This document shows positions 3,355-49,836 of a DNA stretch of 64,000 nt, piece by piece (position 1 is the stretch's first letter; every line of letters starts with the position of its first letter). The translations under genes and the position numbers were made by a program. Below the pieces are notes generated by a model, which ran no database searches, was not told the origin of the DNA, and saw only the letters and a list, made by a program, of their open reading frames with translations. The stretch spans positions 65,908,001-65,972,000 of the forward strand of contig NC_086108.1 in assembly GCF_963921235.1 (NCBI RefSeq), written 5' to 3'. This DNA is from Mobula hypostoma. Lineage: Eukaryota.

Positions 3355-3482
3355 AAGAGGGTGTCAGCCCAAAACATCATCTGTACCTTCTTTTCCCATA
3401 GATGCTGCCTGGCCTGCTGAGTTCTTCCAGCATTTTGTGTGTGTTGCTCAGATTTCCAGCATCTGCAGATTTTCTCTTGTTT
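3355..3482 (+). mobile_element. Penelope-like element 3' end with decayed hammerhead remnant
   Basis: gatgctgcctggcctgctgagttcttccagcattttgtgtgtgttgc...cagcatctgcagattttctcttgttt, shared with the GIY-YIG-linked copy at 19310..19867. Confidence 0.7.
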
Positions 3483-3489
3483 GGAAAGA

Positions 3490-8200: not shown

Positions 8201-8827
8201 CCACTCGATTCTGTTGTTTGCTCTGGGACCAAGCTTTCTTGTTGTAAACTATCTCTCTAAGATCCCCCAGGGCTATACGCACTTTAACCGGTGTAGTCAT
8301 GGTGACTACATGAAATAAGAAACACAAAGGCAGTGGCAGCCGTTATGAAATAATCGGCTAATTTAAAACACAGAATTTACACAGGAAAATGGGTTTGGGT
8401 TGAGGTTGCGCGTCCACATAACTTCGCACGGCTGTTAACGCCTCAAGGAATGTAGTGGTACAATAAGGAAGTATAAAACACAATGCCAGATATTAGTTTG
8501 TAATTAAACAGAGCTTCTTAAAGATGGATAGTCTTAGAAGAAGTGGCGGTGAATTAAGTCAGTTCCGATGTAAGGTCATTCACTTAACGAGTACAGCGCT
8601 TCTTAGTACATTTAGGATGCCTGATCTGAATATTTATATTTATTTCAAATGCTTTTAAAAACTGTAAAATTAGGTAAAGCGTTGGCTTTAAAAGTTCAAA
8701 GGTTAGATATAGGAGGACAATATTGTCCATTGAATCTGCTTCAGCATTCATAGGTTCAAGTTTAATTGTCATTCAACCATGTATGAATACCCATGAATAC
8801 AGTCAAACAAAACAGTGGAGCTAATTC

Positions 8828-8971
8828 GGGCAGCATCTCTAGGAAGAGGTACAGTCGACGTTTCAGGTCTCGGCCTGTACCTCTTCCTAGAGATGCTGCC
8901 TGGCCTGCTGCGTTCACCAGCATCTTTGATGTGTGTTGTTTGAATTTCCGGCATCTGCAGAATCCCTGTTG
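8828..8971. mobile_element. Miniature fold-back Penelope-like insertion
   Basis: Perfect 26-bp arms 8829-8854 / 8875-8900 around a hammerhead fragment; flanking direct repeat agtggagcYaattc at 8814-8827 and 8972-8985. Confidence 0.8.
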
Positions 8972-9431
8972 AGTGGAGCCAATTCTTTAATTTGTCAACT
9001 TTCTTGACGTACCCCATGATTCCTCTAATGTCCATAGAAAGCCACAAGCAAATTATTCCAGCATATGTATGTACAGTATTTAAAATATTTTCTTTTTCTG
9101 TTTGGATTAAATTATTGGATAAATGCATCCATCTTTTCTACAATGATTTGCATTTTTATTTTTAGCTATGAAACTCTGATTCAAGCCCAAATCTTACAAG
9201 AACATTTCTACATCCAGATTTGACTGCAAAACATTTTTGCCATAAGTATATTTTTTTGTGATTAGAATTGCATTGTATTGATTTAATCTTGATTGTAAAG
9301 ACCTACACTGCCATGCTTATAATTGGGAAATTGACAAATAAATTTAAATATATTCTGTCTAATTTGCAGGATATCAAAATATTCATTCATCTATCAGAAA
9401 TAGTCTGATAATCGCAGTTAATCAGTATATA

Positions 9432-9605: not shown

Positions 9606-11773
9606 AAAAAAGTATAAACAGCACCATTTACAAACATCAAATTAGTCTCAGAACCACATGAGAAAAAAAATTGAGTAGACTTAAGATGATTAAGAGATTA
9701 TTGAAATTTAGAAAGAATGCCCACAAGAAAATAAATCTCAAAATAAATATGGTGACATAAATGTACTTCAATAATAAATTTACCTTGAACTTTGTAATTA
9801 TAAGATAAATAAATAAATAGCTACATAAGTTATTTCAAGGCTCAACAAGCTGGTTGCAAGCAGAAAGTTTCATATATTTCTGAAATGTAGGATGAATGAT
9901 AGATGTTTTGGAATTAAGATGAGGAGACTTCTTCACTGGGAGATACATCTTTGGAATTATCTAGACCACTGGGCTGAACACTTAGCCATTGAGAATCAAA
10001 ACAAAGATCAATAGAAGTCTGAATATTAGGGGGAATCAATGCTGTTGAATAAAGTAGAGCTCATTGGATATGAGCCAGATGAAGTGTGAAACAAACTCAA
10101 ACCAGGTGCCCTGATCCTGCTCCTAATTTGTATGTACTTTGCAGAACAGACAGACATTTTTTTTTGTAATTAGACAACGTTATTCACTCTGGTATCATTG
10201 TTAAGATGGGCTGAGATAGAGGGGGAGCTGAAAAATTAAGTAGGTTATGGGATTTGATGCTGTGCCCAAATCAGATAGGAGATTGTAGATGGGATATGAT
10301 AGACAATCTTCTTTAACCTGAAGCACTGACCAGGGTGCAGAAGAAATCAATGCAGAAGTATAGAATTTTTGGTTTGGTGAAATCCTTAATTGCATAAAGC
10401 AGCCCAATCCAAGATCTGTTTATGGATAGTAATGGAATCAGGGTGTTTGCAGAAAAGTGGACAAGGTAGGGAGTCAACAACAGTCTTACTGATTTACAGG
10501 ATAAGCCTGAGATTTGGTACGGCCCGCTCCTGCTTCATAACTTGGATTCTTATTGCCAGCGCCTTCTAATATTTGAAATAAAAACTGAAACTAATGAAAA
10601 ATCTTTGAGGGGTAGAAAATGTGATTCGAATATTTACAAAAGGAGGGACATGGTTTATGAAAGGAAAATGCTGTTGACTAGTCCTTGAGGCTGTGATGAG
10701 TAGAATAGATAAGGGGGACAATGGATATGAATTTTTGAAATGTAATTGCTAAAAGTCCTGCACATTAAACTGATTATCACACTGAATTTTGGGTAAAATA
10801 CTGACATGGATTGATAATTATTTATCTGAATGAGTAGAATAAATGGATCATTTTCAAACCAGCAAGCTTTTTATAGATGTTAGAGTTGATTACTAAGGAT
10901 ATGATCTCGGGATACATGGAGGCACATGATAAAGTCAGCATGGTTTCCTCAAGGGAAAATCTTGCCAGACAAATCTGTTGGAATTCTTTGAAGAAATAAC
11001 AAGCAGGATAGTCAAATGAAATTCAGTTGATGTTGTGTACTTGGATTTTCAGAAGGCCTTTGACAAGGTGCCGCACATGAGGCTGCTTAACAAGCTGCAA
11101 GCCCATGCATGGTATTACAAGAAAGATCCTAGCATGCATAAAGCAGTGGCCCATCGGCAGGAGGAAAAGAATGGGAATAAAGGAAGCCTTTCGTGGTTTG
11201 GCTGCCAGTGACTAGTGGTTTTCCACAGGAGTCTGTATTGGAACCAATTCTTTTAAAGTTATATGTCAATGATTTGGATGATGGAATTGATGGCTTTGTT
11301 GCTAAGTTTGCAGATAATACGAAGATAGGTGGAGGGACAGGTGATTTTCAGAAAATAGGCTACAGAAGGACTTAGATTAGGAGAATGGGTAAAGAAGTGG
11401 CAGATGAAGTACAGTGTCGGGAAGTGTATGGTCATTCACTTTGGTAGAAGAAATGAAAAGGCTGACTATTTTCTAAATGGAAAGAAGATACAGAAATCTG
11501 AGGTGTAAAGGGATTTGGGAGTCCTTGAGCAGGATTCCTTAAAGGTTAATTTGTAGGTTGAGTCTGTGGTAAGGAAGTTAAATGTGATGTTAACATTAAT
11601 TTCAAGAGGACCAGAATATAAAAGCAAGGATGTAATGTTGAGACTTTAAAAAGTTACTTGGATACTACTCAGTTGGAGTATTGTGAGCAATTTTGAACCC
11701 CTATCTTAGAAAGGATGTGCTGAAACTGGAGAAGATTCAAAGGAGGTTAATGAAAATGATTCCAGGATTAAAC

Positions 11774-14700
11774 TAGAATGGTTGGGGGGTGGGAATCAAA
11801 TTAAAGAGGCTAGGCGTGAGGAGGTTAGTTCACGACAGAGGGATGGGAACCAGTGTAGGGAGACAGAGGGGTGTAAAGTGAGGGTAGAAGCAAAAAGTAC
11901 AAAGGAGAAAAGTAAAAGTGGCAGGCCGACAAATCCAGGGCAAGCATTAAAAAGGGCCACTTTTCAACATAATTGTATAAGGGCTAAGAGAGTTGTAAAA
12001 GAGCGCCTGAAGGCTTTATGTGTCAATGCAAGGAGCATTCGTAGTAAGGTGGATGAATTGAAAGTGCAGATTTTTATTAATGATTATGATATAGTTGGGA
12101 TCACAGAGACATGGCTCCAGGGTGACCAGGGATGGGAGCTCAACGTTCAAGGATATTCAATATTCAGGAGGGATAGACATGAAGGAAGGGGAGGTGGGGT
12201 GGCGTTGCTGGTTAAAGAAGAGATTAACGCAATAGAAAGGAAAGACATAAGCCGGGGAGATGTGGAATCGATATGGGTAGAGCTGCGTAACACTAAGGGG
12301 CAGAAGACGCTGGTGGGAGTTGTGTACAGGCCACCTAACAGTAGTAGTGAGGTCGGAGATGGTATTAAACAGGAAATTAGAAATGTGTGCAATAAAGGAA
12401 CAGCAGTTATAATGGGTGACTTCAATCTACATGTAGACTGGGTGAACCAAATTGGTAAAGGTGCTGAGGAAGAGGATTTCTTGGAATGTATGAGGGATGG
12501 TTTTTTGAACCAACATGTCGAGGAACCAACGAGAGAGCAGGCTATTCTGGACTGGGTTTTGAGCAATGAGGAAGGGTTAATTAGCAATCTTGTAGTGAGA
12601 GGCCCCTTGGGTAAGAGTGACCATAATATGGTGGAATTCTTCATTAAGATGGAGAGTGACATAGTTAATTCAGAAACAAAGGTTCTGAACTTAAAGAGGG
12701 GTAACTTTGAAGGTATGAGAAGTGAATTAGCTAAGATAGACTGGCAAATGACACTTAAAGGATTGACGGTGGATATGCAATGGCAAGCATTTAAAGGTTG
12801 CATGGATGAACTACAACAATTGTTCATCCCAGTTTGGCAAAAGAATAAATCAAGGAAGGTAGTGCACCCGTGGCTGACAAGAGAAATTAGGGATAGTATC
12901 AATTCCAAAGAAGAAGCATACAAATTAGCCAGAGAAAGTGGCTCACCTGAGGACTGGGAGAAATTCAGAGTTCAGCAGAGGAGGACAAAGGGCTTAATTA
13001 GGAAGGGGAAAAAAGATTATGAGAGAAAACTGGCAGGGAACATAAAAACAGACTGTAAAAGCTTTTATAGATATGTAAAAAGGAAAAGACTGGTAAAGAC
13101 AAATGTAGGTTCCCTGCAGACAGAAACAGGTGAATTGATTATGGGGAGCAAGGACATGGCAGACCAATTGAATAATTACTTTGGTTCTGTCTTCACTAAG
13201 GAGGACATAAATAATCTTCCGGAAATAGTAAGGGACAGAGGGTCCAGTGAGATGGAGGAACTGAGCGAAATACAAGTTAGTAGGGAAGTGGTGTTAGGTA
13301 AATTGAAGGGATTGAAGGCAGATAAATCCCCAGGGCCAGATGGTCTGCATCTTAGAGTGCTTAAGGAAGTAGCCCAAGAAATAGTGGATGCATTAGTGAT
13401 AATTTTTCAAAACTCGTTAGATTCTGGACTAGTTCCTGAGGATTGGAGGGTGGCTAATGTAACCCCACTTTTTAAAAAAGGAGGGAGAGAGAAACCGGGG
13501 AATTATAGACCGGTTAGCCTAACGTCGGTGGTGGGGAAACTGCTGGAGTCAGTTATCAAGGATGTGATAACAGCACATTTGGAAAGCGGTGAAATGGTCG
13601 GACAAAGTCAGCATGGATTTGTGAAAGGAAAATCATGTCTGACAAATCTCTTAGAATTTTTTGAGGATGTAACTAGTAGAGTGGATAGGGGGGAACCAGT
13701 GGATGTGGTATATTTGGATTTTCAAAAGGCTTTTGACAAGGTCCCACACAGGAGATTAGTGTGCAAACTTAAAGCACACGGTATTGGGGGTAAGGTATTG
13801 GTGTGGGTGGAGAATTGGTTAGCAGACAGGAAGCAAAGAGTGGGAATAAACGGGACCTTTTCAGAATGGCAGGCGGTGGCTAGTGGGGTACCGCAAGGCT
13901 CAGTGCTGGGACCCCAGTTGTTTACAATATATATTAATGACTTGGATGAGGGAATTAAATGCAGCATCTCCAAGTCTGCGGATGACACGAAGCTGGGTGG
14001 CAGTGTTAGCAGTGAGGAGGATGCTAAGAGGATGCAGGGTGACTTGGATAGGTTGGGTGAGTGGGCAAATTCATGGCAGATGCAATTTAATGTGGATAAA
14101 TGTGAAGTTATCCACTTTGGTGGCAAAAATAGGAAAACAGATTATTATCTGAATGGTGGCCGATTAGGAAAAGGGGAGGTGCAACGAGACCTGGGTGTCA
14201 TTATACACCAGTCATTGAAAGTGGGCATGCAGGTACAGCAGGCGGTGAAAAAGGCGAATGGTATGCTGGCATTTATAGCGAGAGGATTTGAGTACAGGAG
14301 CAGGGAGGTACTACTGCAGTTGTACAAGGCCTTGGTGAGACCACACCTGGAGTATTGTGTGCAGTTTTGGTCCCCTAATCTGAGGAAAGACATCTTTGCC
14401 ATAGAGGGAGTACAAAGAAGGTTCACCAGATTGATTCCTGGGATGGCAGGACTTTCATATGAAGAAAGACTGGATGAACTGGGCTTGTACTCGTTGGAAT
14501 TTAGAAGATTGAGGGGGGATCTGATTGAAACGTATAAGATCCTAAAGGGATTGGACAGGCTAGATGCAGGAAGATTGTTCCCGATGTTGGGGAAGTCCAG
14601 AACGAGGGGCCACAGTTTGAGGATAGAGGGGAAGCCTTTTAGGACCGAGATTAGGAAAAACTTCTTCACACAGAGAGTGGTGAATCTGTGGAATTCTCTG

Positions 14701-14910
14701 CCACAGGAAACTGTTGAGGCCAGTTCATTGGCTATATTTAAGAGGGAGTTAGATATGGCCCTTGTGGCTACGGGGGTCAGGGGGTATGGAGGGAAGGCTG
14801 GGGCGTGGTTCTGAGTTGGATGATCAGCCATGATCATAATAAATGGCGGTGCAGGCTCGAAGGGCCAAATGGCCTACTCCTGCACCTATTTTCTATGTTT
14901 CTATGTTTCT
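11774..14910 (+). mobile_element. Young CR1 LINE, 5'-truncated at the ORF1 stop, with full ORF2 and 3' UTR
   Basis: Uninterrupted 3-kb ORF; (TTTCTATG)n tail; taaac duplicated at 11769-11773 and 14910-14914. Confidence 0.93.
11782..14814 (+). CDS. CR1 ORF2: APE endonuclease plus reverse transcriptase
   Basis: EN motifs NARSI, GITETW, GVVYRPP, MGDFN, SDH; RT motifs NYRPVSLTS, YLDFQKAFDKVPH, GVPQGSVLGP, KSADD (normally FADD). No in-frame ATG before the EN domain. Confidence 0.92.
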   Translation: MGGGNQIKEARREEVSSRQRDGNQCRETEGCKVRVEAKSTKEKSKSGRPTNPGQALKRATFQHNCIRAKRVVKERLKALCVNARSIRSKVDELKVQIFINDYDIVGITETWLQGDQGWELNVQGYSIFRRDRHEGRGGGVALLVKEEINAIERKDISRGDVESIWVELRNTKGQKTLVGVVYRPPNSSSEVGDGIKQEIRNVCNKGTAVIMGDFNLHVDWVNQIGKGAEEEDFLECMRDGFLNQHVEEPTREQAILDWVLSNEEGLISNLVVRGPLGKSDHNMVEFFIKMESDIVNSETKVLNLKRGNFEGMRSELAKIDWQMTLKGLTVDMQWQAFKGCMDELQQLFIPVWQKNKSRKVVHPWLTREIRDSINSKEEAYKLARESGSPEDWEKFRVQQRRTKGLIRKGKKDYERKLAGNIKTDCKSFYRYVKRKRLVKTNVGSLQTETGELIMGSKDMADQLNNYFGSVFTKEDINNLPEIVRDRGSSEMEELSEIQVSREVVLGKLKGLKADKSPGPDGLHLRVLKEVAQEIVDALVIIFQNSLDSGLVPEDWRVANVTPLFKKGGREKPGNYRPVSLTSVVGKLLESVIKDVITAHLESGEMVGQSQHGFVKGKSCLTNLLEFFEDVTSRVDRGEPVDVVYLDFQKAFDKVPHRRLVCKLKAHGIGGKVLVWVENWLADRKQRVGINGTFSEWQAVASGVPQGSVLGPQLFTIYINDLDEGIKCSISKSADDTKLGGSVSSEEDAKRMQGDLDRLGEWANSWQMQFNVDKCEVIHFGGKNRKTDYYLNGGRLGKGEVQRDLGVIIHQSLKVGMQVQQAVKKANGMLAFIARGFEYRSREVLLQLYKALVRPHLEYCVQFWSPNLRKDIFAIEGVQRRFTRLIPGMAGLSYEERLDELGLYSLEFRRLRGDLIETYKILKGLDRLDAGRLFPMLGKSRTRGHSLRIEGKPFRTEIRKNFFTQRVVNLWNSLPQETVEASSLAIFKRELDMALVATGVRGYGGKAGAWF

Positions 14911-18179: not shown

Positions 18180-18633
18180 ACAACACACATCAAAGTTGCT
18201 GGTGAACGCAGCAGGCCAGGTAGCATCTCTAGGAAGAGGTACAGTCGATGTTTCAAGCCGAGACCCTACGTCAGGTCTAACTGAAAGAAGAGCTAGTAAG
18301 AGATTTGAAAGTGGTAGGGGGAGGGGGAGATCCAAAATGATAGGATAAGACAGGAGGGGGAGGGATGGAGACAAGAGCTGGACAGTTGATTGGCAAAAGG
18401 GATATGAAAGGATCATGGGACAGGAGGCCCAGGGAGAAAGAAAAGGGTGAGGGGGGGGGAACCCAGAGGATGGGCAAGGGGTATAGTGAGAGGGACAGAG
18501 GGAGAAAAAGGAGAGAGAGAAAGAATGTGTGTATATGGATGGGGTACGAGGAGGGGGTGGGGCATTGGCGAAAGTTTGAGAAGTCAATGTTCATGCCATC
18601 AGGTTGGAGGCTACCCAGATGGAATATAAGGTG
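18180..18633 (-). mobile_element. Penelope-like element 3' part: GIY-YIG C-terminus plus decayed hammerhead
   Basis: Minus strand encodes QHLIFHLGSLQPDGMNIDFSNFRQ, then a pyrimidine-rich tract and CTGACGT...GAAACATC; same family as 31379..32138. Confidence 0.8.
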
Positions 18634-19309
18634 CTGTACATTCTTTCTCTCAGTTTACACAGTTTGACTCTGAAATATGTAATAGAGATTTACTGTAGCT
18701 CTGTCCTTGGGGATTTGGGAATTCTGCACTGTCACACTTCAGCTGGTGAGCGAGATTCCAAAGAGTAAGTCCCTTTTATGACTAATTATCATTTGAGGCC
18801 ATTCCTAATAGTAATTAGGGCGAATCAGGGTTTTGTTTGCTCTATTAATTCTGATTTCCAATCCAGTAATTCAGAGAAAAAAAAATGGAATGTTGGGATA
18901 TATTTATGAGATTATTAACTATAAACCAAACAATTCTTTTTTATATGATTGTACAAGACGTTGGTTAGATCTCAAAAGGTATACTGTGTCCAGTTTGGTC
19001 TTCTATTTTTATTTAGTTTTAATTAACTTGATTAATAAATACTTATAAACCCTTGGTAAATTGTACTAATGTAAGTGAGGTAATAGTGACTGTTTTGAAC
19101 ATTCAAACAAATTAATATTGGTCCGTCTACAATTAATTTTAACAATGGTTTTAAAGAGAACCATCTGCAAGATGCACAGCAAGAGCTTGCCAAGATTTTT
19201 TTGACAGAACTTCTCGGGTACCAGGCAACAAGCACATTAAGACAGTACTCTAATTTCCCTTTCAAGTCACACATCATCTGGATTTCAAAAAATATTGCCT
19301 TTCTCCTAG

Positions 19310-19867
19310 AACAAGTGGCCACCCATTTTAATTCCATTTCCCATTTCCGTTCAGATATGCCCATCTATGGCCTCCTCCACTGTCATAATGAGGCCACGCC
19401 TAGGCTGGAGGAACAACACTTGTATTCCATTTGAGTTGTCTTCAATCTGATGGCATGAACATCAATTTCTCAAATTTACGGCAATGTCCCTCAAACACCC
19501 CCTTCACCATTTCCATCCCCTTTCCCTTCCCTCACCTTATCTCCTTGCCCACCCATGGACTCCCTCCATCTCTCCCCCCCCCAGTTTTCTTTCTTCCATG
19601 GCTTTCTATCTCTTTCACCAATCAACTTCCTAGCGCTTTACTTCATCCTTCCTCCTCCAGGTTTCACCTACCACCTAGTAGTTCTCTCTCCCCCTCGCCT
19701 CACCTTTAAAATCTACTCCTCAGCATTTTTTCTCCAGTCCTGCCGAAGGATTTCAGCCCAAAATGTCGACTATACTTCTCTCCGTAGATGCTGCCTGGCC
19801 TGCTGAGTTCCTCCACCATTTTGTGTGTTGCTCAGATTTACAGCATCAGCAGATTTTTTTCTTGTTT
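19310..19867 (+). mobile_element. Penelope-like element 3' part: GIY-YIG C-terminus plus decayed hammerhead
   Basis: VATHFNSISHFRSDMPIYGLLHCHNEATPRLEEQHL...LQSDGMNINFSNLR; cagtcCTGCCGAaggatttcagcccAAAAtgtcgact at about 19735-19771. Confidence 0.8.
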
Positions 19868-20939: not shown

Positions 20940-30479
<9,540 letters not shown>

Positions 30480-31437
30480 AGTTATATAGACCTAATGCTT
30501 GTGCTTAGTTAGAGTAACTATTGTATTCTATCCTTGTTTGTTTTAAATTACTGTATTTTTGGGTACAAGTATTTTATGTTTTGATGCATTCATTACTTTT
30601 GTAAAAATTATTTGTTAAGGTGTAATGAAGACATGCTACATTTTCAAATTTGTTTCACAATTTTCTTCCAAATTCAATTTGTTATTTGTAGAGTAAAAAT
30701 GTTCATCTGAAATTTGTCCTTGCTTAAGGATGTATCCACATGCTCTTGAAATGCAGTGACTTGTGACTGATTGTTTTCATACCAAATGAGATCATATTTG
30801 ACATGCAGCGGGTGCACAATTCAATATTTTCAAATTAATTCGTGCAAATTAATTTGTCATTTTTAGTATCAACTTCCCCCACATTTTAAAATTTAAATGC
30901 ATATTGACAGAACTTAAAGGAAATACAGAGAGTGAAGTATTATGTTAAATAATACTATTCGTTAATCCTTAAGTACATTTTTTTCTAGAGGAACAACCAA
31001 TTTAGAAAGAATTACCATTGAAATCACATTTGCACGCGTTCATTTATTTGTGTACTTTTGAAAGTAAATTCATGCATTGGAATTTTTAATGTGTAAAAAT
31101 GACAAAACATTTTTATGTACATTGCAGTATAGTTTCCCACAGGTCGAACATTTTTAGAGGGCAAGGAGTTGACTCTGGAAGTGGTAGCTGAGAACTTTTT
31201 GCAGGCTGGTATTACGTTGGTTGAAGATCTTGGTAAAGAAATCTTTCAAGTCTAAATATTAGATCTTGAAATGGTGAGAAAAATCAGAGCAACTGAACTA
31301 CTATCCTGTATAAAAACGATGACAAACACTGTCATTTTCTACCATTCTGAAACTTTGATAGGACACTTCCTAATGTGACACACATAAAAGTTGCTGGTGA
31401 ACGCAGCAGGCCAGGCAGCATCTATTGGAAGAGGTAC

Positions 31438-31473
31438 AGTCGACGTTTCGGGCCGAGACCCTTCGTCAGGACT
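31438..31473 (-). ncRNA. Minimal type I hammerhead ribozyme motif (mirror copy)
   Basis: Exact reverse complement of 32004..32039. Confidence 0.8.
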
Positions 31474-32003
31474 AACTGAAAGAAGAGATAGTAAGCGATT
31501 TAAAAGGGGGAGTGGGAGGGGGAGATCCGAAATGATAGGAGAAGACAGGAGGGGGAGGGATGGAGCCAGGAGCTGGACAGTTGATTGGCAAAAGGGATAT
31601 GAGAGGATCATGGGACAGGAGGCCCAGGGAGAAGGAAAAGGGGCAGGGGGGGAACCCAGAGGATGGGCAAGGGGTATAGTGAGAGGGACAGGGGGAGAAA
31701 AAGAATGTGTGTGTCCCTTGTACCCCATCTGTTATTTATTTATTTATATACACACATTCTTTTTCTCTCTCTCCTTTTTCTCCCCCTGTCCCTCTCACTA
31801 TACCCCTTGCCCAACCTCTGGGTTCCCCCCCTCCCCCTTTTCCTTCTCCCTGGGCCTCCTGTCCCATGATCCTCTCATATCCCTTTTGCCAATCAACTGT
31901 CCAGCTCCTGTTTCCATCCCTCCCCCTCCTGTCTTCTCCTATCATTTCGGATCTCCCCCTCCCCCTCCCCCTTTCAAATCTCTTACTAGCTGTTCTTTCA
32001 GTT

Positions 32004-32039
32004 AGTCCTGACGAAGGGTCTCGGCCCGAAACGTCGACT
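32004..32039 (+). ncRNA. Minimal type I hammerhead ribozyme motif (sense to CMPK1)
   Basis: Helix I AGUC/GACU; core CUGACGA 32008-32014 plus an extra A; helix II GGGU-CUCG-GCCC; GAAA 32028-32031; palindromic ACGU replacing helix III; GUC cleavage triplet ending at 32035. Confidence 0.8.
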
Positions 32040-32780
32040 GTACCTCTTCCAATAGATGCTGCCTGGCCTGCTGCGTTCACTAGCAACTTTTATGTGTGTT
32101 GCTTGAAATTCCAGCATCTGCAGATTTCCTCGTGTTTGCACTTCCTAATGTGAGTTAGCATAGTCTCAAAGTATTTTCTGCAGTAGGCGTATGGGATCAT
32201 TTTACTCGCAGGACAGCAGTTCTTTTGGAGCATTGTCATCTAAGCAGCTATTGTTATTTCATTCACCATACAATGAGATCTTTCAAACATAGCTTTTCTC
32301 ATTGTCCATTGTTTCTTTTTCTCTGCATCCCTCACTCCACGATGAAAGTTCTGATTTCCAGTAATGCTGCATACCACAGTGCTGGTCCTGACCACATTAC
32401 TGTTCTTCCACTTACTCCTTCCCTTTGCGTATGAAGTATCTAATAACTAATTGCAGTGAGGGCTAGGTGGGGCCACAACTGAAATAATTGAATATCCTGC
32501 TGGAATGTCAATCCAATGTACAGTACCAGTTAAAATGTTATAAATATATCGAGGACGCTAAAGAATATTTTCTAAAATCAAGACAGGTTCTGTGCATTGG
32601 AAATCATTATAAACACTGGAAATATGGAACAGTTCAGCTGCCATTGGTAAAGTGACAGATTTACATTCCTATTGCAAAGATTCTGTGAGAACAATTCACC
32701 TAAATTTTGACCTTCCGTAACAAATGCCGATTAAATATCAGGATTTTCAGTACTTCATCAATTTGTGTTTGAGAACATCA

Positions 32781-32786
32781 AATAAA
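32781..32786 (+). terminator. Candidate CMPK1 polyadenylation signal
   Basis: First canonical AATAAA I find after the stop codon (ATTAAA at 32730; another AATAAA at 33006). This would give a 3' UTR of about 2.3 kb. Confidence 0.5.
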
Positions 32787-33413
32787 AGTTTTACTTGAAT
32801 CTCTAATTCCAATCCTTCTAGTTTGAACATTGAATTCTGAGAAATTTGTCCATTTATTTAATATAAGAATGACCAGAATACCTCATTTCATTTAACATTC
32901 GTCTGCTTTTGTATACTTTTTGTTATTTTTCTAAATAATAATTAACTAAATAATTAAATCATAATTTGAATTTCTATTATAATTGATAGCATTCTCCTCA
33001 AATGTAATAAAATAAGGACTCCTGCTTGCAAAGGTGCAGTAAATATTATTAGAAACAAAGAGATAATTAATAATGTACTCCAGATGTGTATTTTGAGCTG
33101 CCAAGGCTTGGAAGGTGCTTGCAATTTGTATTTTATGATTAGCTGACATTTAATATTAAATAATTACAATTCATTCCATTTCTGTAGGTATGACTAACTT
33201 CTTTTGCAGCATCTTTAGCTTTTGTATCTGGTCATTTCTGACTACATGAAAGCATTTTCAAATCATTAGCAATATTAGACCTCTGTATAAATGTAGATTA
33301 TCTATTTGGTTATTAGTATTGCAGATTAAAAGAAGTAAAGAAAAATTGACTGCATGTTTGTGTTTGAATTTGAAGAAAAATCATATTTTAGCTTGTAGCT
33401 TGGATTTGTAGTT

Positions 33414-35007
33414 GGCAGATAAATCCCCAGGGCCAGATGGTCTGCATCCCAGAGTGCTTAAGGAAGTGGCCCAAGAAATAGTGGATGCATTAGTGATAAT
33501 TTTTCAAAACTCGTTAGATTCTGGACTAGTTCCTGAGGATTGGAGGGTGGCTAATGTAACCCCACTTTTTAAAAAAGGAGGGAGAGAGAAACCGGGGAAT
33601 TATAGGCCGGTTAGCCTAACGTCGGTGGTGGGGAAACTGCTGGAGTCAGTTATCAAGGATGTGATAACAGCACATTTGGAAAGCGGTGAAATGATCGGAC
33701 AAAGTCAGCATGGATTTGTGAAAGGAAAATCATGTCTGACGAATCTCATAGAATTTTTTGAGGATGTAACTAGTAGAGTGGATAGGGGAGAACCAGTGGA
33801 TGTGGTATATTTGGATTTTCAAAAGGCTTTTGACAAGGTCCCACACAGGAGATTAGTGTGCAAACTTAAAGCACACGGTATTGGGGGTAAGGTATTGGTG
33901 TGGGTGGAGAATTGGTTAGCAGACAGGAAGCAAAGAGTGGGAATAAACGGGACCTTTTCAGAATGGCAGGCGGTGACTAGTGGGGTACCGCAAGGCTCAG
34001 TGCTGGGACCCCAGTTGTTTACAATATATATTAATGACTTGGATGAGGGAATTAAATGCAGCATCTCCAAGTTTGCGGATGACACAAAGCTGGGTGGCAG
34101 TGTTAGCAGTGAGGAGGATGCTAAGAGGATGCAGGGTGACTTGGATAGGTTGGGTGAGTGGGCAAATTCATGGCAGATGCAATTTAATGTGGATAAATGT
34201 GAAGTTATCCACTTTGGTGGCAAAAATAGGAAAACAGATTATTATCTGAATGGTGGCCGATTAGGAAAAGGGGAGGTGCAACGAGACCTGGGTGTCATTA
34301 TACACCAGTCATTGAAAGTGGGCATGCAGGTACAGCAGGCGGTGAAAAAGGCGAACGGTATGCTGGCATTTATAGCGAGAGGATTCGAGTACAGGAGCAG
34401 GGAGGTACTACTGCAGTTGTACAAGGCCTTGGTGAGACCACACCTGGAGTATTGTGTGCAGTTTTGGTCCCCTATTCTGAGGAAAGACATCTTTGCCATA
34501 GAGGGAGTACAGAGAAGGTTCACCAGATTGATTCCTGGGATGGCAGGTCTTTCATATGAAGAAAGACTGGATGAACTGGGCTTGTACTCGTTGGAATTTA
34601 GAAGATTGGGGGGGGATCTGATTGAAACGTATAAGATCCTAAAGGGATTGGACAGGCTAGATGCGGGAAGATTGTTCCCGATGTTGGGGAGGTCTAGAAC
34701 GAGGGGTCACAGTTTGAGGATAGAGGGGAAGCCTTTTAGGACCGAGATTAGGAAAAACTTCTTCACACAGAGAGTGGTGAATCTGTGGAATTCTCTGCCA
34801 CAGCAAACTGTTGAGGCCAGTTCATTAGCTATGTTTAAAAGGAAGTTAGATATGGCCCTTGTGGCTACAGGGGTCAGGGGGTATGGAGGGAAGGCTGGGT
34901 TCTGAGTTGGATGATCAGCCATGATCATAATAAATGGCGGTGCAGGCTCGAAGGGCCGAATGGCCTACTCCTGCACCTATTTTCTATGTTTCTATGTTTC
35001 TATGTTT
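33414..35007 (+). mobile_element. Young CR1 LINE, 5'-truncated, RT domain uninterrupted
   Basis: ORF 33412..34905 nearly identical to the C-terminal half of 11782..14814, with KFADD intact; (TTTCTATG)3 tail. Confidence 0.93.
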
Positions 35008-37432: not shown

Positions 37433-37625
37433 CAGACGAGAAAATCTGCTGATGCTGGAAATCCAAAGCAACATCTATGGAAGAGAATAAATAATCGACA
37501 GGTCAGGCTGAGACCCTTCTCCAGTCTTAAAGAAGGATCTTTAATGGAATGTTGACTGTTTACTCTTTTCCATTGATGCTGCCTGACCTGTTGAATTCCT
37601 CCAGCATTTTGTGTGTGTGTTGCTT
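37433..37625. mobile_element. Older fold-back Penelope-like insertion with 10-bp TSD
   Basis: Opposed copies of the PLE 3' end; aagtaggtta at 37423-37432 and 37626-37635. Confidence 0.7.
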
Positions 37626-44529: not shown

Positions 44530-46330
44530 GATGCACCCAGCAGGATGCTCTCCACCGTGCATCTATAGAAGTTTGTCAAAATTTTAGATGACATGATGAA
44601 CCTCCACAAACCTCCAAGAAAGAAAAAGCCCTGTAGGACCTTCTTTGAGATTGCACTTATGTGCTAGTCTCAGGACAGATCCTCTGATCTCAGAACGTCA
44701 AGGAACTTAAAGTTACTGACACTTTCCCTCTGATGCCCTAATGAGTATTGGCTCATGGACCTCTGGCTTCTTCCTCCTGTAGGCAATAATCAGTTCTTTG
44801 GTTTTTCTGATATAAGTGCAAGGTTGTTGTTGTGCCACCCTTCAACTAGACTTTCAATCTCCCTCCTATATTCTGTTTCATCACCACCTTTGATGAGGCC
44901 AACAACAATGATTTAATCAGCATACTTAATTATGGCATTAGTGTTGTACTTAGCCACACAATCATAGGTATAAAGTGAGTGGAGCGGGGGCTAAGCACAT
45001 CGTTTTGTAGTGCACCTCTGCTGATGTTGAGGAGAATATGTCATTGCCAGTCTGTACTGACTGGAGTCTGCAAATGAGGAAATCGAGGATCCAGTTGCAT
45101 CTGAAGGTATCAAGCCCAAGGTATTTGAGCTTAGTGATTAATTTCAAGGGGATAACAAATTTGAATGCTAAGTTGTACTCAATGAAGAGCCAAGTGATAA
45201 ATGCATCTTCATTGTCCAGATGATTCAGATGATTAATAATGGATATTATATTAACAGCATCTACCACTGACCTGTTATGATGGCAGGCACATTGGAATTG
45301 ATCCTTGTCACTCCTCAGGCAGGAGTTGATATGCATCATGACCAACCTCTCAAAGCACTTCATCGCAGTGTATATAAGTGGTACTGGACAATAGTCATTG
45401 AGGCAGATTGCCAAGTCTTTTTGGACACAGTATGGTTGAAGCCTTCTTGAAGCAGATGGGTACCTCAGACTGCCAAAGCGAGAGGTAACCCTTTAGTTAG
45501 TTGATTAGTGCAGGCCTTTAGTACTCAATCAGCTACACTATCTGGGCCATATGCTTTTCATGGGTTCACCTTCCTGAAGGATGTTCTCATGTTGGCCACA
45601 GAGACTAAAATCACAGGGGTCTCAGACCATGGTGGTTCGTGAAGTTGCTTCCATGCTCTTGTCAGTCAAAATGAGAATAAAAAGCCTTGAGCTTATTTGA
45701 AAACAAAACTTTGATGTTGCTTATGTAGCTTTGTAGGAGGTGATAGCATTCAATCCTTGCTACAATGGTCAAGCATCATTCTGTGATTCCAGGTTGGTCC
45801 AGAATTGCCACTTTGCATGCAAAATGGCTTTCCATAGGTCATACCTGGACCTCTTGTATTTTCTTGCAAAGCCAGTCCTAACATCACTGATCTAGCCCTC
45901 AACGGATTGTGGATTTCTTGGTTCATCCAGGGCTTCTGGTTGGGGAAGACTCAGAATGATTTTGTGGGTACACTTTTGTCCATGTGAATCTTTATAAAGT
46001 CTGTAACAACTGTGGGACATTCACTTAGGTCCTCTGATGAGTCCTTGAACATGGCCCACTCCATCTAATCAAAGAAATCCCATGGCCACTCCTCTGCCTC
46101 TCATGGAGGCAGAGGAGTGGCCATGGGATTTCTTTGATTAGATGGAGTGGGCCATGACCAACTCTTTGTTGCCCTTACTTCTGGTGTCTTGCTTTTTAAT
46201 CACTGCCAATATACCTGGAGGAGGTGTTCAGATTTTCCGAACTGAGATGGAGATGGAACAGTAGGGATCTTCTATCCAATGATGGCCAACTGTGATGTCA
46301 GTAGTGGCTCTAAGAAGGTTCTCTGATGAA
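44530..46330 (-). mobile_element. Degraded Rex1/Babar-like LINE
   Basis: ORF 44962..45414(-): CLNDYCPVPL..AMKCFERLV...CNWILDFL; upstream tether remnants including FPNQKPWMN. Confidence 0.8.
46050..46156. repeat. Perfect 51-bp inverted repeat with 5-nt spacer
   Basis: 46050-46100 is the exact reverse complement of 46106-46156; spacer tcatg. Confidence 0.95.
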
Positions 46331-48573: not shown

Positions 48574-49636
48574 TCCTGTACAGTGTAATGTGTTAATAGG
48601 CAGCATTTGCTTATGGAGATCGCCTTCAACTGAAAGACCAACAAATTATGAGTACACAAAATTGCATTTGTCATTGAGTCCTGCCAAAGTGTCTCAGCCC
48701 AAAGTATTGACTGTACTTTTTTCCCTAGATGCTGCCTGGCCTGTTGAGTTCCTCCAGCATTTTGTGTGTGTTCCTGTAGAGAAGAGAGAAGGCAATAAAT
48801 TAAAAGTCCTCCAATTAGCTGTCTGGAATTAATAAAAAGTTGCTTAAGTCTCATGTCCATGAGAAGCAGTACTGAGGCATCCTAGTTAGGAATGTTATCA
48901 AAATAATTTGTGACGTCTATTGTTATTTATACTCAGACCAATTGACTTCATAAACCTCAGTGCCTCTGAGATAGAATGGGAATGTAAATTAGTCATAGAT
49001 TTTCAGAGTTATACAGCACAAAAATGGGGCTTTCACCTCACTGGTGAACATGTCAATCTTTTAGAACATCTATGCTAATACCATTAAATCCGTATCTTTA
49101 TATGCCTTGTCCATATAAGTGCCCATCAGCATTTTTCTTAAATGTAGTTATTGTTTCTGATTCCATCACTGCCTTTGACATGCCATATGCCTTTTACACC
49201 ATCCTAACTATTGCATTACCACTTTCTGGGAATTATGGACTTGAATCCTAGATTCCCTTTCCTTAGGAAGCTACTATTTACATTGTCTACCACGACTTGA
49301 CTTGATAGAATGTGACACCTCACAGCTGTTGGGATTAAATTTCATCTATCAAAGTTCAAATTAAATTTTATTATCGAAGTACATACTGTATATGTCACCA
49401 TGATCTCAGTGAACGTACCAGCTAGTTGATCAGCACAGGTTTTTAGTATGTGGCTGGGTACCCTGTCCAGTCCGGATGCTTTCTGTGGTTTCACCCTCTT
49501 GAAGGCAGCCTGTATGTCACCTTCAGAGACTGAGATCATGGAATCATCAGAAGATGTAGGAGTTCGTGATAGTTCCTCCATGTTCTGCTGGTCAAATTGA
49601 CACTCTTTCAATACTCCACCAACTGTTCCTTTTGAT

Positions 49637-49836
49637 CAACAGGCAATCTGCTGGAAGAACTCAGCAGGTCAGGCAGCATCTGTGGGTGGAGAGCATCAAT
49701 ATTTCAAGTTAAAACTGTAGTGTAGTGTTTTGACCCGAAACAGCGTAAATTTTCCCCTCTCTCTAATACTGCTTAAGTCGCTGAGTTCCTCCAGCAGATA
49801 GCTTGTTGCTCTAGATTCCAGCTTCTGCAGACTCTC
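49637..49836. mobile_element. Old fold-back Penelope-like remnant
   Basis: caacaggcaatctgctggaagaactcagc ... gctgagttcctccagcagatagcttgttg inverted pair; gacccGAAAc remnant. Confidence 0.6.

Follow-up and report, generated by a model that had tools for sequence, protein, structure and literature searches.

The 3′ UTR of a CMPK1-like gene (UMP-CMP kinase) in the 64,000-nt stretch of DNA analysed here (the window) carries an insertion with the anatomy of a Penelope-like element (PLE). It is most probably a truncated insertion of a high-copy PLE that is likely transcribed whole within the CMPK1 3′ UTR, where it would form a ~340-bp hairpin that keeps its hammerhead motif (HH) inactive. The best reading is that the insertion is tolerated and was not built as a switch.

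Anatomy of the insertion

The insertion comprises 760 bp (31379–32138) between direct repeats that are identical at 15/15 positions and thus form an exact target site duplication (TSD; Table 1). Its two arms are opposed. Ungapped comparison of 31378–31703 with 31774–32099 covered 326 nt and revealed exactly 10 mismatches, and an additional 23-nt stem (31690–31712 with 31750–31772) lies beyond an indel in the arms. In total, the arms measure ~334 and ~350 nt (right arm, 31750–32099) and are separated by a 37-nt spacer (31713–31749), most of which is taken up by the first 35 nt of the sense pLTR. The first-pass annotation had described a 760-bp insertion with a perfect 15-bp TSD, opposed arms of ~335–350 nt around a ~37-nt spacer, and an HH that is identical in both arms despite ~10 other differences. 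These measurements agree with that description, and the HH is the same at 36/36 positions on the two strands. Seven of the 10 arm differences are transversions and three are transitions; just two of the 10 leave a G-U pair on the + strand.

Within the sense HH, stem I is formed by 32004–32007 and 32036–32039, the core occupies 32008–32014 and is followed by an extra A, and stem II spans 32016–32027. Helix III (32031–32034) is palindromic, and the cut is predicted from the motif at 32035/32036. The features of a minimal type I HH are therefore all present: the core boxes, helices I and II, an extra base at 9/10.1, and the palindromic helix III. An Rfam scan of the window returned no hammerhead family match at E up to 1. 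Matches to miRNA precursors in Rfam were rejected, as they were below the gathering scores and reflect hairpins only.

Table 1. Positions of the insertion, its parts, and the adjoining CMPK1 sequence in the window
Feature	Positions	Strand	Basis or remarks
Last coding exon, CMPK1 (UMP-CMP kinase)	30423..30479	+	Splice acceptor, open frame; stop TGA 30477–30479
Proximal 3′ UTR, single copy	30480..31363	+	RNA contigs in 3/3 RNA-type runs; one genome match
TSD, left copy	31364..31378	+	15 bp, sequence comparison
Left arm: inverted, 5′-truncated, tail-less pLTR copy, antisense in mRNA	31379..31712	-	
Left-arm minimal HH motif, antisense in mRNA	31438..31473	-	
Complete sense pLTR	31715..32099	+	Start shared with 50/88 family copies
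Minimal type I HH motif, right arm	32004..32039	+	Sequence, features as in excerpts of PMC4209133
PLE tail, 39 nt, one end only, outside duplex	32100..32138	+	Family 3′ ends
TSD, right copy	32139..32153	+	15 bp, sequence comparison
Distal 3′ UTR, presumably same transcript, single copy	32154..33338	+	RNA contigs; one genome match

The chance that the palindrome is an assembly artefact is negligible. Short-read assemblies can be troubled by inverted PLE structures (PMC8557442, in part). Against this stand the 10 differences and the indel between the arms, the perfect TSD, and the tail at one end only. Moreover, contigs of all three organisms contain the right junction, and DNA of organism B extends 22 nt into the left arm, an overlap below the 31-letter standard for bridging.

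Origin from a Penelope-like element

For the right end of the insertion, a search of the 3.48-Gb vertebrate genome gave at least 1,599 candidates, and the 40 that were scored were 95–100% alike. The exact HH 36-mer occurs in 4,891 genome copies (2,440 + 2,451), compared with 0 for the reversed control. Pieces of a frame with RT and GIY-YIG lie upstream of many family copies, and one RT piece used as a query yielded 76,143 candidates in the genome. In longer copies, ORFs of 742–865+ aa end ~15 nt before the pLTR start (position 31715). Pfam RVT_1 and GIY-YIG were matched in 2/2 long-copy proteins, with E values of 5e-5 to 9e-4 and scores short of the curated cut-offs, while 2/3 short ORF fragments of the family gave no Pfam match. 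All three ORFs examined contain a CX4CxxC linker between RT and EN and two cysteines inside GIY-YIG. Excerpts of PMC8557442 define Neptune/Nematis by CX2-5CxxC between RT and EN and by CCHH with two cysteines in GIY-YIG, and by its motifs the putative autonomous partner falls within this definition. We call it "Neptune-type" provisionally, on the basis of these motifs and of Neptune being a vertebrate clade.

The ends of the family were mapped with 88 copies of ≥84% identity, after the locus itself and three duplicate loci had been dropped. The start is at 31715 in 50 copies. Of the 3′ ends, 34 fall exactly on 32138, and a second cluster falls on 32098–32110. Because of these clusters, 31715–32099 was assigned as a full pLTR, 32100–32138 as the tail, and the left arm as an inverted tail-less copy; the latter stops at pLTR position 32099, a frequent end point in the family (32098–32110). 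The HH core is intact in 69/82 family copies. Variants that are rare in the family, namely at 31785 (2/63), 31908 (1/69), 31970 (3/80), and 32051 (3/82), are present in both arms, which points to one template.

Judged from its sequence, the insertion is a non-autonomous fragment of an EN+ PLE, with all four structural marks of such elements: a pLTR behind an ORF with RT and GIY-YIG, an adjacent inverted 5′ copy, a one-sided tail, and a TSD. The last three are described as typical of PLEs in excerpts of PMC3846280 and PMC8557442, and one-sided tails of 30–40 bp are known from PLEs (PMC8557442 and PMC11167929, in part). In an Anolis PLE, the tail is where RT starts (excerpt of PMC11167929). The earlier attribution to PLEs, with a minimal type I HH and palindromic helix III, is thus borne out by the RT/GIY-YIG copies and by the motif as given in excerpts of PMC4209133. 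The insertion could have arisen as the RT/GIY-YIG protein of the element nicked the target and used the tail as the starting point of reverse transcription; a second, inverted copy made from this template would have been joined at the 5′ end.

Transcription on both sides of the insertion

Exon 24469–24624 has UMP-CMP kinase as its best PDB match (E 6e-20), and pieces of TIGR01359 follow in order on the + strand within the window. By sequence similarity, the host gene is CMPK1-like. Proximal-UTR runs come from three organisms. Four of the 23 runs were analysed: three of RNA type (organisms A, B, and C) and one of DNA (organism B). All four consist of contigs, and their comparison covered sequence on both sides of the element up to its interior (31401–32109). 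The RNA status of the runs rests on splice joints: RNA-type runs contain GT-AG joints between the last exons, and their depth over unique intron bins is 0–3.5. One such RNA contig joint, 29590–30421 with GT..AG at cut +2, leads into the last CMPK1 exon.

On the proximal side, each of the 3/3 RNA-type runs contains one RNA contig that extends from 30421 to 31384/31385. On the distal side, there is one RNA contig per run, which starts inside the tail and reaches 33291, 33237, or 33338. Because RNA contigs cover both single-copy flanks, the element was placed inside the CMPK1 3′ UTR, as the first-pass annotation had proposed. No contig of the three RNA-type runs and the DNA run bridges the element, and from the two flanks we infer one continuous ~2.9-kb 3′ UTR containing it. 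The same annotation had located the element between the stop codon and the first AATAAA. These positions hold, as the stop is not followed by any AATAAA before 32781. However, RNA contigs run through this AATAAA and the one at 33006 and continue to 33237–33338, so 32781 is not the main transcript end. RNA cover does not extend past 33341, whereas the DNA contig continues, which is a weak hint for a 3′ end there. The poly(A) signal is likely ATTAAA at 33325 or AGTAAA at 33334, with a GU-rich stretch just behind, so that polyadenylation would be expected at around 33345–33355.

The flanks could also belong to two transcripts, with a CMPK1 transcript that stops at the left arm or shortly after entering it and a distal RNA driven by the pLTR, so that the full hairpin would rarely be made. 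We regard this arrangement as very improbable. It would account for the stops of the three proximal RNA contigs at 31384–31388, with 0, 1, and 4 unaligned letters, and a CATAAA is present at 31383. PLE pLTRs are also thought to contain promoters (PMC11167929 and PMC3846280, in part), and part of the distal RNA could originate at one of these. However, none of the 18 tested poly(A)-signal variants was found 10–35 nt upstream of 31385, and organisms B and C lack an intact TATAAA at 31309. The distal contigs begin inside the tail in all three organisms. Distal and proximal word depths are of the same order (75.5/63.7, 246/154, and 48.9/62.1), although contig depth is a poor measure.

Among the loose contig ends listed, none of the organisms examined shows an empty site, and the tail junction is also present in B and C. 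Relative to the window, the flanks differ at 24/964 and 19/1112 sites in B and at about 25/940 and 30/1216 sites in C (1.7–2.7%). Set against these flank values, the arm divergence of 3.1% is in keeping with neutral drift that began shortly before the three lineages separated. That the insertion was kept in three organisms was counted against the reading as a tolerated fragment. The idea that the PLE machinery retro-mobilised CMPK1 mRNA was rejected, since best-candidate searches found no second genome copy of either UTR flank.

Frequency of the fold-back layout

The layout of the insertion was compared with that of other family members in two samples, one biased to tailed, similar copies (best hits) and one biased to exact HHs (chosen by position). 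An inverted upstream copy was found in 14/29 other best-hit loci, where both arms span the HH in 12 and a TSD is present in 8. The corresponding numbers for the position-chosen exact-match loci were 11/30, 6, and 7; in this set, L089 and L090 are one insertion counted twice and L091 may be two insertions. TSDs at these sampled fold-backs are 12–16 nt long. The antisense-then-sense order is thus, as far as the family copies indicate, a routine product of insertion by this PLE family. Dual minimal HHs on opposite strands, 100–700 bp apart, were reported by Cervera and De la Pena, 2014 (PMC4209133, in part). The doubly counted insertion (L089/L090; G000:C1:12431697-12435956) is head-to-head; its arms carry the 36-mer without a difference, and its TSD is 14 bp long. 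Inspection by eye of the first 100 exact matches listed revealed two close opposite-strand pairs of the 36-mer.

The identity of the two HHs at the CMPK1 locus is not surprising, because the probability of 0 differences in 36 nt, given 10 in 326, is 0.33. Selection on the HH was therefore rejected as an explanation of arm identity over 36 nt. In the other fold-backs of the best-hit set, differences are more frequent within the HH (44/432 sites) than in the remaining sequence (148/2587), and when scaled accordingly the probability of identical HHs here drops to ~0.1. The CMPK1-locus arms are also the least diverged in the sample, with 3.1% compared with ~4–18% in other pairs with at least 50 shared sites, and all HH CpGs are retained. 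A weak constraint on the CMPK1-locus HH would be compatible with these values.

Selection for pairing has left no sign in the arms, as 7/10 differences are transversions. In other fold-backs, transitions account for 135/211 and 71/103 differences, and the 3/10 at the CMPK1 locus correspond to a binomial P of ~0.013 at 69%. The transversion-rich arm differences could hint at conversion between the arms, although the numbers are small.

Predicted fold of the hairpin and the hammerhead

The predicted fold of the whole element has an energy of -706 kcal/mol, compared with -271 ± 6 kcal/mol for 20 shuffles. The long dsRNA that had been claimed from the inverted repeat is accordingly well supported in prediction, and ADAR could plausibly act on it. 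In both the MFE and centroid structures of the hairpin, the HH is paired throughout. The perfect 88-bp duplex round the HH was calculated at -190 kcal/mol, compared with -8.7 kcal/mol for the HH fold. When all A were read as G, the duplex still had ~-160 kcal/mol, with 48 G-C pairs in 88 bp, although the model overrates the strength of I-U pairs. Even in an isolated 42-mer, the active-like HH fold has a probability of ~0.001. Folded alone, the HH is no better than shuffles (z of -0.1 to -1.0), and its MFE structure is a mispaired form. By prediction only, then, the CMPK1-locus HH lacks the mark of a Clec2-like ribozyme, i.e., foldability in its mRNA context. The hairpin is predicted to keep the HH inactive: the antisense arm, transcribed first, would capture the emerging sense arm and leave the HH unfolded.

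The first-pass annotation had interpreted this arrangement as a lock-and-release switch, in which editing or unwinding of the duplex frees the sense HH, the mRNA is cut at 32035/32036, and CMPK1 loses its poly(A) tail; a helicase or a PLE protein might also free the HH. We consider such a switch very unlikely. The element does lie inside the UTR, and its sense HH core is intact. Elsewhere, a PLE HH is able to cleave with the help of a protein (PMC11167929, in part), a 3′ UTR hammerhead in rodent Clec2d reduces reporter output (PMC2950038, in part), and ADAR destabilises near-perfect UTR duplexes (PMC5682290, in part). However, the transcript has no second sense HH with which to form a dimer, so a partner or protein would be needed. 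According to excerpts of PMC4209133, a single minimal HH shows no cleavage and dimers show low cleavage only. The Anolis PLE HH cleaves only with protein, and RNA-seq ends at its cut site were absent, as far as the excerpt of PMC11167929 goes. The duplex energies given above, even with all A read as G, also stand against release. Editing would moreover strike five adenosines of the catalytic core (32011, 32014, and 32029–32031): with 25% editing, the probability that all five stay unedited is 0.24, and with 50% it falls to 0.03. The layout itself is the default of the PLE family, and RNA is present on both sides of the element in three organisms. The lock thus appears real in prediction, yet it would be a by-product of how PLEs insert, and its release is unlikely to leave a working ribozyme. 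A narrower version, in which a caged HH in the CMPK1 3′ UTR is released by unwinding together with a Penelope protein, or by a partner HH from another family transcript, is very unlikely as well.

Probable editing of the hairpin and possible effects on CMPK1

The proximal RNA contigs stop 7–10 nt into the left arm (31384–31388), beside an A-run at 31386–31389, whereas the DNA contig continues there to about 31403. On the right side, with its unpaired tail, the start points of RNA and DNA contigs lie close together (32112 and ~32105 vs 32111; ~32083 in C). The early stop of the RNA contigs is a weak hint of editing or of a loss of duplex-derived cDNA. By analogy with other systems, the hairpin is probably A-to-I edited: a lizard Penelope is heavily hyper-edited and the elephant shark has abundant editing (PMC5625713, in part). 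Inverted Alus in 3′ UTRs lower translation (excerpt of PMC3458544). The hairpin may have a modest effect on translation or localisation of CMPK1 mRNA, as with inverted Alus.

Other RNA contigs with the same PLE tail (window 32110–32144) and different flanks numbered 294, 291, and 59 in the three RNA-type runs. The PLE family is widely present in transcripts.

The hairpin could also have been co-opted, either to tune CMPK1 translation or localisation via dsRNA-binding proteins or to feed small RNAs that silence PLEs. This is unlikely, though it fits a long and near-perfect hairpin that lies in an expressed UTR and was kept in three organisms, and it has a precedent in the lowered translation seen with inverted Alus (PMC3458544, in part). 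Pair-breaking transversions among the arm differences (7/10, with two differences leaving G-U on the + strand) and an arm divergence that fits neutral drift both argue against it. CMPK1 is also not singled out among the many RNA contigs that share the PLE tail, and any effect of the hairpin need not be a product of selection.

Comparison with known systems

Truncated EN+ PLE insertions, as described in excerpts of PMC8557442 and PMC3846280, share with the CMPK1-locus element the pLTR, an adjacent inverted 5′-truncated copy, the tail, and the TSD. In contrast to them, the element here retains no ORF sequence, its two repeats directly adjoin in a hairpin whose loop measures 37 nt, and the 3′ UTR around it is expressed. 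Its TSD has 15 bp, and those of its own family have 12–16, compared with 8–10 bp in the rotifer PLE examples of these excerpts. Helix II has 4 bp in the CMPK1-locus HH vs 7–8 bp in Schistosoma; the excerpts on such HHs do not mention cartilaginous fish, and cleavage here is predicted from the motif.

Inverted Alus in human 3′ UTRs (PMC3458544 and PMC5682290, in part) are similar in that a ~300-bp retroelement hairpin, an expected ADAR substrate, lies in a housekeeping UTR. Unlike the Alu pairs, which are two independent SINEs, the CMPK1-locus hairpin stems from one insertion, with ~97% complementarity, a very short loop, and a ribozyme motif. Rodent Clec2d likewise has a hammerhead motif between the stop codon and the poly(A) site of a vertebrate mRNA. 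The Clec2d HH is active and discontinuous, has an effect in reporters, and is conserved across species (PMC2950038, in part), whereas the CMPK1-locus HH is minimal, by analogy dimer- or protein-dependent, and fully paired to its antisense copy. Non-LTR retrozymes (bioRxiv 10.64898/2026.07.22.740005, in part) are also PLE-derived, HH-bearing, and non-coding. They are head-to-tail tandems with at least two sense HHs, whereas the CMPK1 element is head-to-head with one HH per strand and thus falls outside this class. Rare exonic retrozyme copies in Xenopus tend to lie in 3′ UTRs, according to the same excerpt.

A limited literature search found no report of the CMPK1 locus or of a caged UTR hammerhead, and no conditional natural ribozyme controlling a vertebrate mRNA. 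The family type and the opposite-strand HH pairs were already known; the RNA on both flanks of the element in three organisms is new. As a routine PLE insertion, the element has little significance. Its modest value is that of a clean test case: a near-perfect hairpin shared by three related organisms, set in a housekeeping mRNA between flanks that are both unique and expressed. The locus is suited to measuring A-to-I editing in this fish group and to asking if a metazoan minimal HH cuts a host mRNA in vivo. A switch, if true, would be a conditional natural ribozyme that controls a vertebrate mRNA, and a caged ribozyme, if true, would tie a nucleotide-supply gene to retroelement activity.

Other repeats in the window

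Several relatives of the element lie in the same window. A miniature fold-back of the same PLE family is located at 8815–8985, with arms at 8829–8867 (-) and 8875–8967 (+), near-perfect 13-nt direct repeats, and an inversion junction within the HH region. A tail-less PLE copy at 18181–18654 (-), upstream of the CMPK1 pieces, is 93% alike and remains attached to the C-terminal part of the GIY-YIG ORF. Older pLTR relics of related PLE families, 72–92% alike, were detected at 19099–19856, 3358–3483, 21573–21657, 37436–37625, 48671–48775, and 49657–49681; the relic at 37436–37625 looks like another small fold-back.

An uninterrupted frame of 1,034 aa is present at 11710–14814 (+), which we take to be a CR1-type LINE ORF2. 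A 5′-truncated copy closely similar to it lies at 33412–34905 (+), ~70 nt behind the last RNA-covered UTR base. The last CMPK1 intron contains a short high-copy repeat (29763–29884) that matched thousands of contigs. Finally, a near-perfect ~110-nt hairpin unrelated to the pLTR was found at 46048–46158, with only sub-threshold miRNA-precursor matches in Rfam; it is possibly a small inverted-repeat transposon.
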